This document shows positions 2,008 through 8,335 of a DNA stretch of 64,000 bases, in pieces. The DNA lies in assembly GCA_029979505.1 (NCBI GenBank), contig JAPOHH010000001.1, positions 55,034-119,033 on the forward strand. Reading direction: 5' to 3'. This DNA is from a bacterium. Its GTDB lineage: Bacteria > Pseudomonadota > Gammaproteobacteria > GCA-002705445 > GCA-002716945. Position 1 is the first letter of the stretch. Every line of letters begins with the position of its first letter. Below the pieces are notes generated by a model that was not told the origin of the DNA, made no database searches, and saw only the letters and a program-made list of their open reading frames with translations. Both the position numbers and the translations under genes were made by a program.

Positions 2008-2962
2008 AAATATATGCATAACTGGAGCAGCAGGAAATATAGCGTACTCGTTAATTTTTAGAATTTTAGCTAAATTACCTTTCAGTAACACAGATAAAAT
2101 AAATTTAAAATTATTAGATATTACGCAGTCACAAAAATCATTAATAGGTCTTCGTTATGAAATTGAAGACTGTGCGTTCTCAACATTAAATTCTATAGAA
2201 GTAACGGATAATGTCGAAAATGCATTTCAAGAGTCAGATTATATTATTATGGTTGGAGCTAAGCCCAGATCTAAAGGCATGGAAAGATCTGATTTAATTC
2301 TTGATAACGCGAATATTTTCAAATCTCAGGCATCAATAATAGATGACGTATGTTCATCATCTACAAAAGTAATTGTTGTGGGTAATCCAGCAAATACAAA
2401 TGCATTGATACTTAATTATAATACCCCTTCTATACCAAATGAAAATATAACATCTTTAATGAAACTCGATCAAAATAGAGCAAAAAGCATTTTAGCTTCT
2501 AAAATCGGTAAACAAGTAGAAGATATAGAACAAATGATAATATGGGGTAATCACTCTACTACACAAGTTCCAGATTTATCAAACTGTAAAATAAATTCTG
2601 TACAAATAAATGTTGATGAATCATGGATACAAAATACATTTATACCAAAAGTACAAAAAAGAGGTGGTGAAATTATTGAGTACAGAGGTTTATCAAGTGC
2701 AGCTTCAGCTGCATCTGCGATTTATGATCACATTCATGTCCTTGATTATGGTTCTGGCTCATGGGAATCTCTCGGAGTAATGACTGGTGGTGAATATGAA
2801 ATTTCATCCGGACTAATGTTTTCACTTCCATTGAATGTAACAAATAAAGGTTATAATGTTATTAAAGACTTAAATATCAATCCAGATATAGATTCGTTAA
2901 TTAAACTTTCTGAGCAAGAACTTCTCAAAGAGAGGGATATTGTTAAGTCTTTCCTTCCATAG
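1997..2962 (+). CDS. mdh: Malate dehydrogenase (LDH-like family)
   Basis: NAD-binding motif ITGAAGNIAYSLIFRI and an MDH-like catalytic region. Confidence 0.85.
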   Translation: MNIKNICITGAAGNIAYSLIFRILAKLPFSNTDKINLKLLDITQSQKSLIGLRYEIEDCAFSTLNSIEVTDNVENAFQESDYIIMVGAKPRSKGMERSDLILDNANIFKSQASIIDDVCSSSTKVIVVGNPANTNALILNYNTPSIPNENITSLMKLDQNRAKSILASKIGKQVEDIEQMIIWGNHSTTQVPDLSNCKINSVQINVDESWIQNTFIPKVQKRGGEIIEYRGLSSAASAASAIYDHIHVLDYGSGSWESLGVMTGGEYEISSGLMFSLPLNVTNKGYNVIKDLNINPDIDSLIKLSEQELLKERDIVKSFLP

Positions 2963-3845
2963 TAACAACCTCAATTTTATCTGATCCTAGATATAATTCA
3001 TTAAAATCACAACTATCTCTTAATATACAATGTGTTAATGTCTTATTATTATACTTATAAGTTTTACCAATTAATTCACCAACACTTTCACCATCATTGT
3101 TGATAATATTTTTTTCTATAATTTCTGAGCTATAAATGTTTACTAAATACATATGCTTTTTTACATTACCAAGATAATGCGTTCGAGCAATGACCTCTTG
3201 CCCTGTATAGCATCCTTTCTTATAGTTAATTGTTTCCAGCTTGTCAGCATTTAAAACTTGAGGGATATATTTCTCTGTATCTTCAGAATTTAATCTTGCA
3301 ATATTACCTAAAAGATCTATTAAAGATGTTTCAGTACTAATAACATTCAAAGGTAAGTCATTAGAATCTAAATATATACATCTACACATAGATATCTCTG
3401 GAAGTGACATATTTATATATATTTTACCACCTTCTACTTGTTTATAATTTTGTTTATTTTCTATACCTTGTTCATTTATTACTTCTTCTGCATCATTACC
3501 AACCATAGATAAAATAGCTATATTTTGATTAACTTCAAAGTTTACTTGAGACATTAAAATATATTTTGATATTTTTTCTATAAATATATCTACTAAATCT
3601 GTTTGTAATAGTATAAATATATCCGAGTTATATTGTATTAATTGAAGATTAGTAATTACTTTTCCTTGGTGAGTACAATAAGATGCTAATAAATATTTTT
3701 CATTTCCTAAACTTTCTATATCATTTGTTAATTGACCTTGGAGAAATTTATTTTTATCTTTACCACTCACTCTTATTGCAGAAAGACCTGTATCATGAAA
3801 TAAAATTTTTTCGTTTTCTAGTATTTCTGATATTAATTTATTCAT
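2943..3845 (-). CDS. ygfZ: Folate-binding Fe-S cluster repair/tRNA-modifying protein YgfZ (GcvT-like)
   Basis: Conserved C-terminal motif KKGCYTGQEVIARTHYLG. In E. coli ygfZ lies next to ygfY(sdhE), which fits the SDH context here. Confidence 0.7.
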   Translation of the reverse strand: MNKLISEILENEKILFHDTGLSAIRVSGKDKNKFLQGQLTNDIESLGNEKYLLASYCTHQGKVITNLQLIQYNSDIFILLQTDLVDIFIEKISKYILMSQVNFEVNQNIAILSMVGNDAEEVINEQGIENKQNYKQVEGGKIYINMSLPEISMCRCIYLDSNDLPLNVISTETSLIDLLGNIARLNSEDTEKYIPQVLNADKLETINYKKGCYTGQEVIARTHYLGNVKKHMYLVNIYSSEIIEKNIINNDGESVGELIGKTYKYNNKTLTHCILRDSCDFNELYLGSDKIEVVTMEGKT

Positions 3846-3979
3846 ATATCTAATTGATAATTATGATTATATGCAACTTATATTGACATAAAGACTCTAA
3901 CATAAGTATATCCTAATAAATAACTATTTATTTTAAAAATATTTTCATATAATAGGCATCAAAGTGAATAGGGATAATC

Positions 3980-4120
3980 ATGAATAATAAGACTAAAAAA
4001 AGTAAGTTAATAATCCCAGTTGATAAAAATAAAAAACCTAAAGAAATAGGTGGAAGAAAAGGCCCTGAACCTACCCGTTATGGCGATTGGGAAAAAAATG
4101 GACGTTGTATAGATTTTTAA
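3980..4120 (+). CDS. DUF1674 / SDHAF4-like small protein (46 aa), not in supplied ORF track
   Basis: Translation [46 protein letters not shown]. Its C-terminus matches the DUF1674/SDHAF4 signature [11 protein letters not shown](R/K)xGRxxDF. An AGGGA-type SD lies upstream, and the ORF sits immediately 5' of sdhC. Confidence 0.55.
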
Positions 4121-4122
4121 TT

Positions 4123-4506
4123 ATGAACACATCTAATAGGCCATTATCACCACACCTGCAAATATATAAGCCGCAGCTAACATCCGTCTTATCCATCTCA
4201 CATCGTATGACCGGTTTTGGTCTTAGTATTATTGTTCTATTTTCACCTGTAATAATCTACTTTTTAACAAAATCAGCTGAAACTCATCAAGTTGTTATAT
4301 CCTTTCTACAAAATACACTAATAAAGTTTATTTTTTCTTTAGCATTATTTGGGCTTTTATATCATTTATGTAACGGCATAAGACATCTCGCTTGGGATGC
4401 AGGATATGGGCTTGATTTAGATACGAGCTATAAATCTGGATATATTGTGCTGGCATCATCATTCTCTCTTACATTGCTTATTCTCTTCATCGCGGGGGCA
4501 TTCTAA
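4123..4506 (+). CDS. sdhC: Succinate dehydrogenase cytochrome b556 subunit
   Basis: MNTSNRPLSPHLQIYKPQ is the SdhC N-terminal motif. The track ORF starts at 4087 in the same frame, but that start would overlap the upstream micro-ORF, so the ATG at 4123 is preferred. Confidence 0.8.
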   Translation: MNTSNRPLSPHLQIYKPQLTSVLSISHRMTGFGLSIIVLFSPVIIYFLTKSAETHQVVISFLQNTLIKFIFSLALFGLLYHLCNGIRHLAWDAGYGLDLDTSYKSGYIVLASSFSLTLLILFIAGAF

Positions 4507-4817
4507 TGGAACACTGGAAACTTCAGCGCATCAGTGCAATTATAATGATTCCTATAGTTGTGCTCTCACTGATATATATAATCAATATTACATCTATTTC
4601 TTATCTTCAGCTTATTGAAGACTTAGGGTCTATATCTGGATTTCTTATAGCTGTATTGTTTGTAGGTTTTATACTGTTTCATAGCTCAATGGGTCTTGAA
4701 GTAATAATAGAGGATTATATTCATTCTGATAATCTTCAAAAAAATGTAATTTCATTGACTAAACTATTGCATATTACCTCATTCTTCTTAACAATATTAA
4801 CTTTAGCGAGTATATAA
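4506..4817 (+). CDS. sdhD: Succinate dehydrogenase hydrophobic membrane anchor subunit
   Basis: Small 3-TM protein sitting between sdhC and sdhA. Confidence 0.75.
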
Positions 4818-4821
4818 AAAA

Positions 4822-6588
4822 ATGGATTTAGTAAAACATGAACATGACGTTCTAGTAGTCGGCGCAGGAGGATCTGGATTAAGAGCTTCTATGGGATTAT
4901 CACAATCTGATTTATCAGTCGCATGTATTTCAAAAGTATTTCCTACAAGAAGCCATACGGTGGCTGCACAAGGTGGCATTAGTGGAGCATTAGGTAATAT
5001 GGGTGAAGATGATTGGAGATGGCATATGTATGACACTGTTAAAGGCTCTGATTGGTTAGGAGATCAAGATTCTATCGAATATATGTGTAAAAATGCTGTT
5101 GAATCAATAATTGAACTAGAGCACTATGGGGTTCCATTTTCACGTACAGAAGAAGGCAAAATATATCAAAGACCTTTTGGAGGTATGACAACCGAATATG
5201 GTAAAGGAATAGCTCAAAGAACTTGTGCTGCTGCAGATAGAACAGGTCATGCGATACTTCATACGTTGTACACACAGTCGCTTAAAAATGATGTAGATTT
5301 TTATATTGAATATTTTGTCATCGATCTTCTTTTTGAAGACGGTAAATGCGTTGGTGTACTAGCTTGGTGTCTAGAAGACGGAAAAATACACTTATTTCAA
5401 TCTCACATGGTCATATTAGCCACTGGTGGTTATGGAAGAGCATATTTATCATCTACCTCAGCACACACATGTACAGGTGATGGAAATGCAATGGTATTAA
5501 GAGCAAATTTACCTCTTCAAGATATGGAGTTTATACAATTTCATCCAACAGGAATATATGGTGCAGGCTGCCTAATAACCGAGGGTGCTAGAGGAGAGGG
5601 AGGATATCTTACAAACTCTGAGGGTGAGCGCTTTATGCCGAAATATGCACCTAATGCTAAAGATTTGGCATCAAGAGACGTCGTAAGTAGAGCAATACAA
5701 ATGGAAGTAAATGCTGGTAGAGGAGTAGGTTTAGAGAAAGACCATGCTCACCTTCATTTGGAACACCTTGGGCCTGAGACAATTAATGAAAGATTACCGG
5801 GTATTGCTGAAACCGCACAAATATTTGCTGGAGTAGATGTAAATAAAGAACCAATTCCTATTATACCAACTGTTCACTATAATATGGGAGGCACCCCAAC
5901 TAATTATAATACTGAAGTATTATCATCAGACAATACTGTGATACCAGGGTTAATGGCGGTTGGTGAGGGAGCATGTGTCTCTGTCCATGGCGCAAACAGA
6001 CTAGGCTCTAACTCTTTATTAGATCTGATTGTTTTTGGAAGATCTGCAGCAGATAGGGCTATTGAGGTTTTAAAAGATAAACCTGAATCTCATCCTAATA
6101 TTTCAAGATCATCAATAGATAAAATCCTCTCAAGATTTGATGCTATCAAAAATGCAAACGGAGACATAAATCCATATGAAATTAGAGACAAAATGCAAAG
6201 GGCTATGCAAAAATATGCACCTGTATACAGAGATCAACAAACAATGGATAAAGGCATTGAAATCATGAAAGGATTATTTGATGATTTTTCTAACATTAAA
6301 CTTACTGATTCATCGATGATTTGGAATACAGATCTCGCAGAAACATTAGAATTAAACAATCTATTATATCAATCACTAGCAACTCTATATTCTGCTTCTG
6401 CGAGAACTGAAAGTAGAGGAAGCCATGCTAGAGATGATTATCCTGAAAGAGACGATGATAATTGGCTAAAACATTCACTTGTGTCTGTAAATGACAAAGG
6501 GGAAGCTAGTTATGATTATAAAGATGTCGAACTAAAAACGCTCACAGATGAAATGGAAACCGTCGAACTTAAAGCGAGGACATACTAA
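4822..6588 (+). CDS. sdhA: Succinate dehydrogenase flavoprotein subunit
   Basis: FAD motifs [14 protein letters not shown] and [10 protein letters not shown] plus the flavoprotein active-site region. Confidence 0.95.
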
Positions 6589-7355
6589 TGGCTAAATTTA
6601 CTCTACCGATAAACTCTATTGTAAAAAAAGGTAAAACATTTTCAGACATTAATAAGTCAGAAAACATGCTAACTGTAGAAATATATAGATATAATCCAGA
6701 TAATAAAAGTAACCCTTACACAGATACATATCTATTAAATAAAGATAATTTTGGTCCTATGGCACTTGATGTTTTAATTTATATTAAAAGTAAAATTGAT
6801 TCTTCATTGACATTTAGAAGATCGTGCAGAGAAGGTATTTGTGGTTCTTGTTCAATGAATATAAATGGAACCAATAACCTTGCATGTATCACTGATATTT
6901 CCAATGAAAAAAAACTGAAGTTTTACCCTTTACCACATATGCCTGTGATAAAAGACTTAGTTCCAGATTTAAATAATTTCTATGCTCAGTATAAATCTAT
7001 CAAACCATGGCTAATTACTGATAAAAAACCTGAGCGTGAACATATTCAATCTCAAGAAGATCGAAGCAAACTTGACGGTCTATTTGAGTGCGTACTTTGC
7101 GCATGTTGTTCTACAAGCTGTCCAAGTTATTGGTGGAACTCTGATAAATATCTCGGTCCAGCTACACTCATGCACGCTTATAAATGGATTATAGATAGTA
7201 GAGATACTGCAAAAGAAGAGAGATTATCTAATTTAGCAGATAAATTTAAACTTTATAGATGTCACACAATTATGAATTGTACTAAGACGTGTCCTAAAAA
7301 TCTTAACCCAGCAAGAGCTATATCAGAAATAAAAAAAATGCTTGTAAAAGCCTAG
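6588..7355 (+). CDS. sdhB: Succinate dehydrogenase iron-sulfur subunit
   Basis: Three Fe-S cysteine clusters: [23 protein letters not shown] and [12 protein letters not shown]. Confidence 0.95.
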
Positions 7356-7356
7356 T

Positions 7357-7608
7357 ATGACTCTAAAAAAACTTCGTTGGAAATCAAGAAAAGGTATTAG
7401 AGAACTTGATATTCTCTTACAGAAATTCTTGCAATCAGAGTATGAAAACCTTGACCCTAATCAAAGAGATATATTTGAAGAAGTTCTTGATTTAGAAACT
7501 TACGATCTGCTAAATGCTATTACAGGAAAATCAAGTTACAATATAAAATATGAGACAATCATTAAAAAGTTATCCCAATTATCAGTGCTAACTAATGATA
7601 AAGCATAA
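7357..7608 (+). CDS. sdhE: FAD assembly factor SdhE (YgfY/SDHAF2 family)
   Basis: 83 aa with RWKSRKGIRELDILL...EEVLDLETYDLL, matching the SdhE RGxxE motif region; directly downstream of sdhB. Confidence 0.75.
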   Translation: MTLKKLRWKSRKGIRELDILLQKFLQSEYENLDPNQRDIFEEVLDLETYDLLNAITGKSSYNIKYETIIKKLSQLSVLTNDKA

Positions 7609-8335
7609 TAAAAGATTAGGAGTTAATATTGATCATATAGCAACTCTGAGAACTAATAGAAAAACAGATTATCCTTCACTTGTTCAGGCTGTCCATATAG
7701 CAGAAGAAAACGGTGCTGACTTAATAACAATTCATTTAAGAGAGGATAGAAGACATATTCAAGATCAGGATGTTATAGATATACGTGCACATGCTAGTGT
7801 TTTAAATCTTGAAATGGCATTAACTGATGAAATGATTAATATTTGCAATAATATTAAACCAGATTACTGTTGTATTGTTCCTGAAAAAAGAAAGGAGTTA
7901 ACCACTGAAGGAGGACTTGATTTATTAAATATGTCCAATAACCAATTTAATTTTTTAGTAGATTCCATCGACCGAATACATCAAAACGGTATTATAGTTT
8001 CTTTATTCATTGACCCCGAAATTAATCAAATAAAAAAATGTATTGAATCAGGAGCTAAATGTATTGAATTACATACAGGTTCTTATGCTAATGCTAAGAA
8101 TAGCATTGAGAAGAATGTTGAATTGCAGAGAATTAAAGATGCTGCTAATTTTGCAGCTAGTTGTAATCTGCAAGTACATGCTGGCCATGGTTTAAACCTA
8201 TCTAATTTGGCAGATATATGTAAAATATCTCCAATAGAAGAGCTTAATATTGGGCATGCTATAATTGCCGATTCAATTTTTAAGGGTTTTGAAAAAACTA
8301 TCAAAGATTACAGGAGTGCTATAAACAATGATTAA
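7595..8335 (+). CDS. pdxJ: Pyridoxine 5'-phosphate synthase
   Basis: LGVNIDHIATLRTNRK and TIHLREDRRHIQD motifs. Confidence 0.9.
   Translation: MIKHNKRLGVNIDHIATLRTNRKTDYPSLVQAVHIAEENGADLITIHLREDRRHIQDQDVIDIRAHASVLNLEMALTDEMINICNNIKPDYCCIVPEKRKELTTEGGLDLLNMSNNQFNFLVDSIDRIHQNGIIVSLFIDPEINQIKKCIESGAKCIELHTGSYANAKNSIEKNVELQRIKDAANFAASCNLQVHAGHGLNLSNLADICKISPIEELNIGHAIIADSIFKGFEKTIKDYRSAINND

Follow-up and report, generated by a model that had tools for sequence, protein, structure and literature searches.

Gene content of the succinate dehydrogenase locus

The window, i.e., the whole stretch of 64,000 nucleotides analyzed here, carries the genes for succinate dehydrogenase close to its start. 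The cytochrome b556 subunit is encoded by sdhC at 4123-4506 (+ strand; Pfam Sdh_cyt 109 bits, TIGR02970 106 bits), followed on the same strand by sdhD at 4506-4817 (+), encoding the membrane anchor (TIGR02968 58 bits, Pfam Sdh_cyt/CybS), sdhA at 4822-6588 (+), encoding the flavoprotein (Pfam FAD_binding_2 408 bits), and sdhB at 6588-7355 (+), encoding the iron-sulfur subunit (Pfam Fer2_3 and Fer4 families). The last sdh-related cistron is sdhE at 7357-7608 (+; Pfam Sdh5 61.6 bits), which encodes a flavinylation factor of the Sdh5/SDHAF2 type and finds its PDB matches in E. coli SdhE/YgfY and Neisseria 1PUZ. The RGxxE motif of SdhE reads KGIRE in the window and RGMRE in E. coli, and one public source names the protein by its old name, antitoxin CptB. 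The 3' end of sdhE is overlapped by 14 nt by pdxJ (7595-8335, +; Pfam/NCBIfam assignment), and no ygfX/cptA is present after sdhE.

Upstream, the sdh genes are flanked by the divergent gene ygfZ at 2943-3845 (- strand), encoding a folate-binding protein of Fe-S cluster maturation within the CAF17/IBA57 family (Pfam GCV_T; TIGR03317 CAF17_like_YgfZ 79.2 bits with a cut-off of 49). Beyond ygfZ lies a convergent malate dehydrogenase gene (Ldh_1_N/Ldh_1_C; 1997-2962) that overlaps it by 20 nt, so that two enzymes of the TCA cycle are grouped with three maturation factors. The host, an uncultured marine gammaproteobacterium, has a streamlined, compact genome of ~30% GC, with contigs of ~1 Mb, and makes weak use of Shine-Dalgarno (SD) sequences. 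Genes within the window are packed, either overlapping or separated by gaps of 1-4 nt, and two tRNAs, Ser-GCT and Arg-TCT, are found among them.

Between ygfZ and sdhC lies a short open reading frame (ORF) at 3980-4120 (+), identified as a DUF1674/SDHAF4-family gene by HMM, alignment to PDB sequences, substitution pattern, and alignment of homologs. Translation of the window shows an ATG start and 46 codons followed by TAA at 4118-4120, with a protein ending in CIDF. Only the two nucleotides TT separate this TAA from the ATG of sdhC at 4123. The first-pass annotation had proposed a micro-ORF of exactly this extent, stopping 2 nt before sdhC, and such an ORF is indeed present; its absence from the six-frame track, as noted there, is presumably due to a length threshold. 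The first-pass annotation had also credited the ORF with an SD of its own, which can be recognized as the SD-like AGGGA at 3970-3974 (+), located 5 nt before the ATG and kept in relatives as AGGGA, AAGGA, or GGAGAG. Taken alone, however, this is weak evidence, as an SD-like 4-mer at -18 to -4 precedes only 15 of the 55 window ORFs of at least 150 amino acids (background 11%).

The region upstream of the ORF contains a promoter/operator-like block of ~55 bp (3902-3956, +) that hardly differs among 12 relatives with coding DNA of 65-88% identity. An inverted-repeat search found a perfect 8+8 palindrome, AATAAATA-AC-TATTTATT, at 3915-3932 within the block, and a perfect and conserved -10 element, TATAAT, is located at 3948-3953. 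The block is probably the sdh promoter together with a regulator site. Transcription would then start near 3960, and the ORF would be the first cistron. A consensus promoter scan of the window returned 25 promoter-like sites compared with 34 expected, made no significant call, and was thus uninformative, missing the TATAAT at 3948-3953 because it has no good -35. The palindrome was also considered as a regulon motif and rejected, as its single occurrence in the window is at chance level.

Coding evidence and selection

The exact protein encoded by the ORF is on record on many contigs, and gene callers have recognized it, with PF07896, in each of the six public contigs inspected (6/6). In addition, NCBI labels relatives "DUF1674 domain-containing protein" and one of them "succinate dehydrogenase assembly factor 4". 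The view of the first-pass annotation that the ORF is unannotated, and such genes rarely annotated, was therefore overstated. Several public gene calls (L095 2338-2574; P0014, P0017, P0019-P0021, and P0028) lengthen the ORF to 78-80 amino acids by starting at an upstream in-frame ATG and reading through the conserved promoter block. These starts are probably mis-called, since the conserved SD and ATG lie internal to the lengthened calls.

Five contigs encoding the identical peptide (L002-L006) show ~81% DNA identity to the window overall, with 94-95% identity across the ORF and 77-88% across the neighboring genes. As these loci had been retrieved by exact protein identity, the comparison was circular and was dropped as coding evidence, and loci were therefore re-chosen through SdhC. 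This unbiased sample comprised 80 metagenome loci retrieved through SdhC and not through the ORF. At an SdhC identity of 53% or more, all 14 loci had an intact DUF1674 ORF immediately before sdhC; the start context was kept in these loci, and the stop-TT-ATG junction was kept in the closest clade. Compared with the window copy, the ORFs of the SdhC-chosen relatives display a dN/dS of 0.05-0.13 (NG86), and the differences fall mostly on the third codon position, e.g., 6/4/24 across the three positions (chi-square p = 2e-5). The constraint is unevenly distributed along the ORF: codons 21-46 show a dN of 0-0.03 at a dS ranging from 0.3 to saturation, with differences such as 1/0/16, while the Lys-rich N-terminal 21 residues show a dN of 0.1-0.3.

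The stretch at 3980-4120 is thus a genuine protein-coding gene under purifying selection. The first-pass annotation had suggested checking the ORF for conservation in syntenic relatives and for a coding-like pattern at synonymous sites, and both checks came out in its favor: every syntenic relative that was selected without regard to the ORF has an intact copy of it, and the substitutions are dominated by third positions. That a streamlined genome has kept the gene under such strong constraint speaks for its importance. The length of the ORF is not significant in itself, because many ORFs of 30-77 amino acids occur in the window at 30.6% GC. Rather, its significance lies in the homology to PF07896 and human SDHAF4 and in the coding-type substitutions among relatives.

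Family membership and conserved residues

The ORF product matches Pfam PF07896 (DUF1674) with 72.6 bits and an E-value of 3.3e-20 across profile positions 15-50 of 50, well above the gathering cut-off of 23.5 bits, and NCBIfam models gave no match to the ORF product. A search of PDB sequences aligned residues 12-46 to positions 74-108 of human SDHAF4 (8DYD/8DYE chain C; E 1.9e-11), which lie within the part ordered in these structures, and residues 19-46 to RhR2 of Rhodobacter sphaeroides (2K5K; E 4.8e-10). Both the HMM search that the first-pass annotation had recommended and the alignment to crystallized human SDHAF4 thus bear out its assignment to the DUF1674/SDHAF4 family. In general, the C-terminal ~35 residues of human SDHAF4, yeast Sdh8, and plant SDHAF4 (PF07896; 8DYD, 8DYE) are homologous to the ORF product, and RhR2 and other alphaproteobacterial DUF1674 proteins belong to the same family and carry the same C-terminal motif.

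Family-wide, 6357 members at E <= 0.001 emerged from 1.84 billion cluster representatives searched with a profile, and the match reaches the exact C-terminus of the protein in 148 of the best 150 representatives. With its 46 residues, the ORF product is about as short as the DUF1674 family gets. It consists of a variable, Lys-rich N-terminal part of 21 amino acids and an invariant C-terminal part of 26 amino acids ending in Asp-Phe-stop, and is essentially the segment ordered on SDHA (human positions 66-108) and nothing more. Like human SDHAF4, it has a variable N-terminus and ends exactly at Asp-Phe. Unlike human SDHAF4, it lacks a mitochondrial presequence, is only 46 residues long, and carries an unrelated Lys-rich N-terminal tail. 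Its N-terminus is presumably disordered.

Numbered from the shared C-terminus, window positions equal human SDHAF4 positions minus 62. Ten residues, E84, E92, R95, Y96, D98, G103, R104, C105, D107, and F108 in human numbering, are identical in human SDHAF4 and the ORF product. Among these, E84, E92, D107, and F108 of the human protein proved necessary to bind SDHA-SDHAF2 or to displace SDHAF2 (Sharma et al. 2024, PMC10784507). D107 and F108, strictly conserved across SDHAF4 homologs, insert in the dicarboxylate site at SDHA H407 and R451 (PMC10784507), while SDHA R171 is clamped by the acidic residues E84 and E92 (PMC10784507, supplementary tables 2 and 4). All four residues are kept in the ORF product as E22, E30, D45, and F46. 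In an alignment of 24 diverse homologs, E22, D45, and F46 are invariant, and position 30 is either E or D. The residues making side-chain contacts in human SDHAF4 (R95, Y96, D98, and R104) and those making backbone contacts (G86, G103, and C105) are likewise identical in the ORF product, and human R101 and K102 correspond to K39 and N40.

SdhE/SDHAF2 (Sdh5) is also a small SdhA-binding assembly factor and is encoded in the same operon as the ORF. Yet it is unrelated to SDHAF4 in fold and sequence and differs in its task, as it promotes covalent flavinylation, whereas SDHAF4 acts afterwards.

Conservation of the locus among gammaproteobacteria

Scanning genomes with the DUF1674 alignment yielded 80 species-level loci. 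The arrangement in which ygfZ is divergent from DUF1674-sdhC-sdhD-sdhA-sdhB, usually followed by sdhE, was found in 60 of the 61 gammaproteobacterial loci chosen via DUF1674, and ygfZ is likewise placed divergently in 60 gammaproteobacterial loci. Such loci are present in Xanthomonas, Stenotrophomonas, Pseudoxanthomonas, Lysobacter, Luteimonas, Rudaea, and Tahibacter, and further in Steroidobacteraceae, Woeseiaceae, Salinisphaera, Alkalilimnicola, Spiribacter, Wenzhouxiangella, and Competibacterales. The Xanthomonadales/Lysobacterales, Steroidobacterales, Woeseiales, Salinisphaerales, and Ectothiorhodospirales share the locus architecture of the window together with an identical C-terminal core of 26 residues. 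Their DUF1674 proteins are 50-100 amino acids long with acidic or Pro/Ala-rich N-termini, compared with 46 amino acids and a Lys-rich N-terminus in the window, and the gap between DUF1674 and sdhC spans 19-250 nt in other gammaproteobacteria compared with 2 nt in the window. An unusually long gap of ~590 nt is seen in an Ectothiorhodospiraceae MAG (L053, 4247-4834). A gamma-type DUF1674, 93% identical over residues 20-46, is encoded by a 6.7 kb contig assigned to a CPR MAG binned as "Candidatus Paceibacterota" (L024, JASGCE010000135.1); the contig is most likely mis-binned.

Alphaproteobacterial DUF1674 genes were not adjacent to sdh in any of the 16 loci sampled (0/16), unlike in the window; in three of these loci (L035, L073, and L085), DUF1674 lies divergently beside rsmB, encoding the 16S rRNA methyltransferase RsmB (PF01189). 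In human, yeast, and plants, SDHAF4 is encoded by a separate nuclear gene, whereas the window gene opens the sdh operon as its first cistron.

In E. coli K-12 (NC_000913.3), ygfZ is divergent from sdhE-ygfX (L167, 3040416-3042293) and gltA is divergent from sdhCDAB. The ygfZ-sdhE part equals the layout of the window at 2943-7608 minus DUF1674-sdhCDAB, i.e., E. coli has kept divergent ygfZ and sdhE without a DUF1674 gene there. No DUF1674 remnant was found in the 242-bp intergenic region between ygfZ and sdhE of E. coli, and no DUF1674 gene is annotated upstream of sdhC in the gltA-sdhC region, judged by the annotation only. A Lysobacterales MAG (L075, JASJDM010000046.1, 5900-6400) looks like an intermediate between the two layouts: divergent ygfZ is followed by DUF1674 (58 bits) and then, without intervening sdhCDAB, directly by sdhE (Sdh5, 83 bits), so that the two genes for SdhA assembly factors are paired.

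The placement of the ORF as first gene of the sdh operon, as the first-pass annotation had suggested, is supported by the synteny in 60 of 61 loci, the upstream TATAAT, and the 2-nt gap to sdhC. Judged from the sequence, the operon would read DUF1674-sdhC-sdhD-sdhA-sdhB-sdhE, and the ORF and sdhCDAB would be co-transcribed on one mRNA; no terminator was found between the ORF and sdhC.

Proposed role on SdhA

The SdhA encoded in the window includes the motif HGANRLG, the FAD-linking His45, and the active-site residues His352 and Arg393, corresponding to human H407 and R451. Its best PDB matches are mitochondrial SDHA structures with 750-820 bits, compared with 656 bits and 53% identity for E. 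coli SdhA. The 16 residues of human SDHA contacting SDHAF4 are the same in the window SdhA, except for A454, a backbone contact, which is replaced by S. As a control, the same 16 positions were inspected in SdhA from E. coli and from loci lacking DUF1674 upstream, where they are equally conserved. Since they are conserved also where DUF1674 is absent, as in E. coli, an organism without SDHAF4, the contact residues indicate compatibility but do not discriminate, and they were rejected as a discriminating test.

By analogy with the human system, the ORF product is likely a minimal bacterial SDHAF4 (yeast Sdh8) that heads the sdh operon and acts on SdhA as in humans. The conserved first-cistron position in many gammaproteobacteria adds strong guilt-by-association support for a role in complex II. 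In this model, the free peptide would be disordered, and once FAD has been covalently attached to His45 of SdhA with the assistance of SdhE, the C-terminal 26 residues would fold onto SdhA. Glu22 and Glu30 would then clamp an arginine of SdhA (R117 in the window, R171 in humans), and the terminal Asp45-Phe46-COOH would mimic a substrate by entering the dicarboxylate site with its His352 and Arg393. As a consequence, the flavin would be shielded, off-pathway catalysis and the generation of reactive oxygen species (ROS) would be blocked, release of SdhE may be helped, and holo-SdhA would be held until the peptide gives way to SdhB and the SdhCD anchor. Both binding to SdhA and the chaperone role are deduced from the human structures.

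Bacterial SdhA-SdhE complexes reportedly dissociate readily (PMC10238741), and a role in displacing SdhE, as seen for the human protein, may therefore be unnecessary for the ORF product. According to the literature, the N-terminal region of human SDHAF4 aids the displacement of SDHAF2, and the N-terminal segment of the ORF product is not similar to that region in sequence.

The reported unaided dissociation of SdhA-SdhE (PMC10238741) is also compatible with a rather different role, in which the ORF product serves as a stable regulator, inhibitor, or accessory subunit and not as a transient assembly chaperone. Here, the peptide would cap free or assembled SdhA and thereby tune its activity or limit ROS, with no handover from SdhE to SdhB. 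The terminal Asp-Phe, which acts as a dicarboxylate mimic blocking the active site in the human complex (PMC10784507), would suit such an inhibitor, and since the peptide is the product of the first cistron, its synthesis could match or exceed that of the subunits. However, the position of human SDHAF4 clashes with the binding site of SDHB (PMC10784507), which makes permanent residence in the assembled enzyme unlikely, and both partners carry the contact residues of the human pair. A stable regulator is considered an unlikely alternative to a transient chaperone.

The close junction between the ORF and sdhC raises the question of whether translation of the ORF, and not its product, is what counts, with the ORF acting as a leader or uORF that controls sdhC via termination-reinitiation at TAA-TT-ATG. 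The 2-nt gap, the lack of an SD-like sequence before sdhC, and the preservation of the junction in the close clade all speak for such a leader. Yet a leader peptide is expected to be unconstrained, or constrained only at regulatory codons, and the opposite is seen here: the amino acid sequence is conserved as far as human, dN/dS is ~0.1, and the C-terminal 26 amino acids are invariant across orders. Moreover, DUF1674 is unlinked to sdh in alphaproteobacteria, stands directly before sdhE in the Lysobacterales MAG, and is separated from sdhC by 19-250 nt in other gammaproteobacteria, while most genes of the window are without an SD and tightly packed anyway. Because SD-poor, tightly packed genes are the norm of the window and the gaps are wider elsewhere, translational coupling to sdhC was weakened as specific evidence and given little weight, and a leader function is highly improbable. 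Finally, short ORFs of such length are common in the window, but a functionless chance ORF or annotation artifact is virtually discounted and already refuted by the HMM E-value of 3e-20, the 6357 family cluster representatives, and the intact frame with third-position-dominated substitutions in all close relatives.

Implications for bacterial complex II assembly

Loss of SDHAF4 causes complex II deficiency. To our knowledge, studies resolving the mechanism of SDHAF4 were confined to proteins from human, fly, yeast, and plants. In 2018, the Iverson and Cecchini groups reported that no bacterial SDHAF4 homolog had been identified, and in 2023-24, the same groups pointed to putative alpha- and gammaproteobacterial homologs, occurring in organisms not used as models (PMC10784507, PMC10238741). 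The remark of the first-pass annotation that the family is functionally untested in gammaproteobacteria agrees with the searchable literature, in which neither a functional test of DUF1674/SDHAF4 in any bacterium nor a description of its conserved first-cistron placement before sdhCDAB-sdhE in gammaproteobacteria was found. While the family and its eukaryotic function were already known, the operon linkage in gammaproteobacteria is apparently undescribed. Overall, this is a sound result of use to annotation, and only modestly surprising.

More tentatively, it could be speculated that an SDHAF4 homolog, sdhCDAB, sdhE, and divergent ygfZ formed a self-contained locus of complex II plus its maturation factors in basal gammaproteobacteria, which was split later in enterobacteria, leaving ygfZ divergent from sdhE. 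Where SdhA and SdhE dissociate by themselves, the original job of SDHAF4 may have been to protect free holo-SdhA from ROS and futile catalysis by capping its flavin and dicarboxylate site, and displacement of SDHAF2 may be a later, mitochondrial elaboration. This ancestral scenario is a possibility rather than an expectation, but if true, Xanthomonas or Stenotrophomonas would provide the first genetically tractable bacterial model of SDHAF4.

For annotation, it follows that gene calling should include the ORFs of 45-60 codons upstream of sdhC and name them as members of the SDHAF4 family, instead of missing them or labeling them "hypothetical". As the same operon is found in culturable and genetically tractable genera, the role of the bacterial protein in complex II is open to simple genetics.
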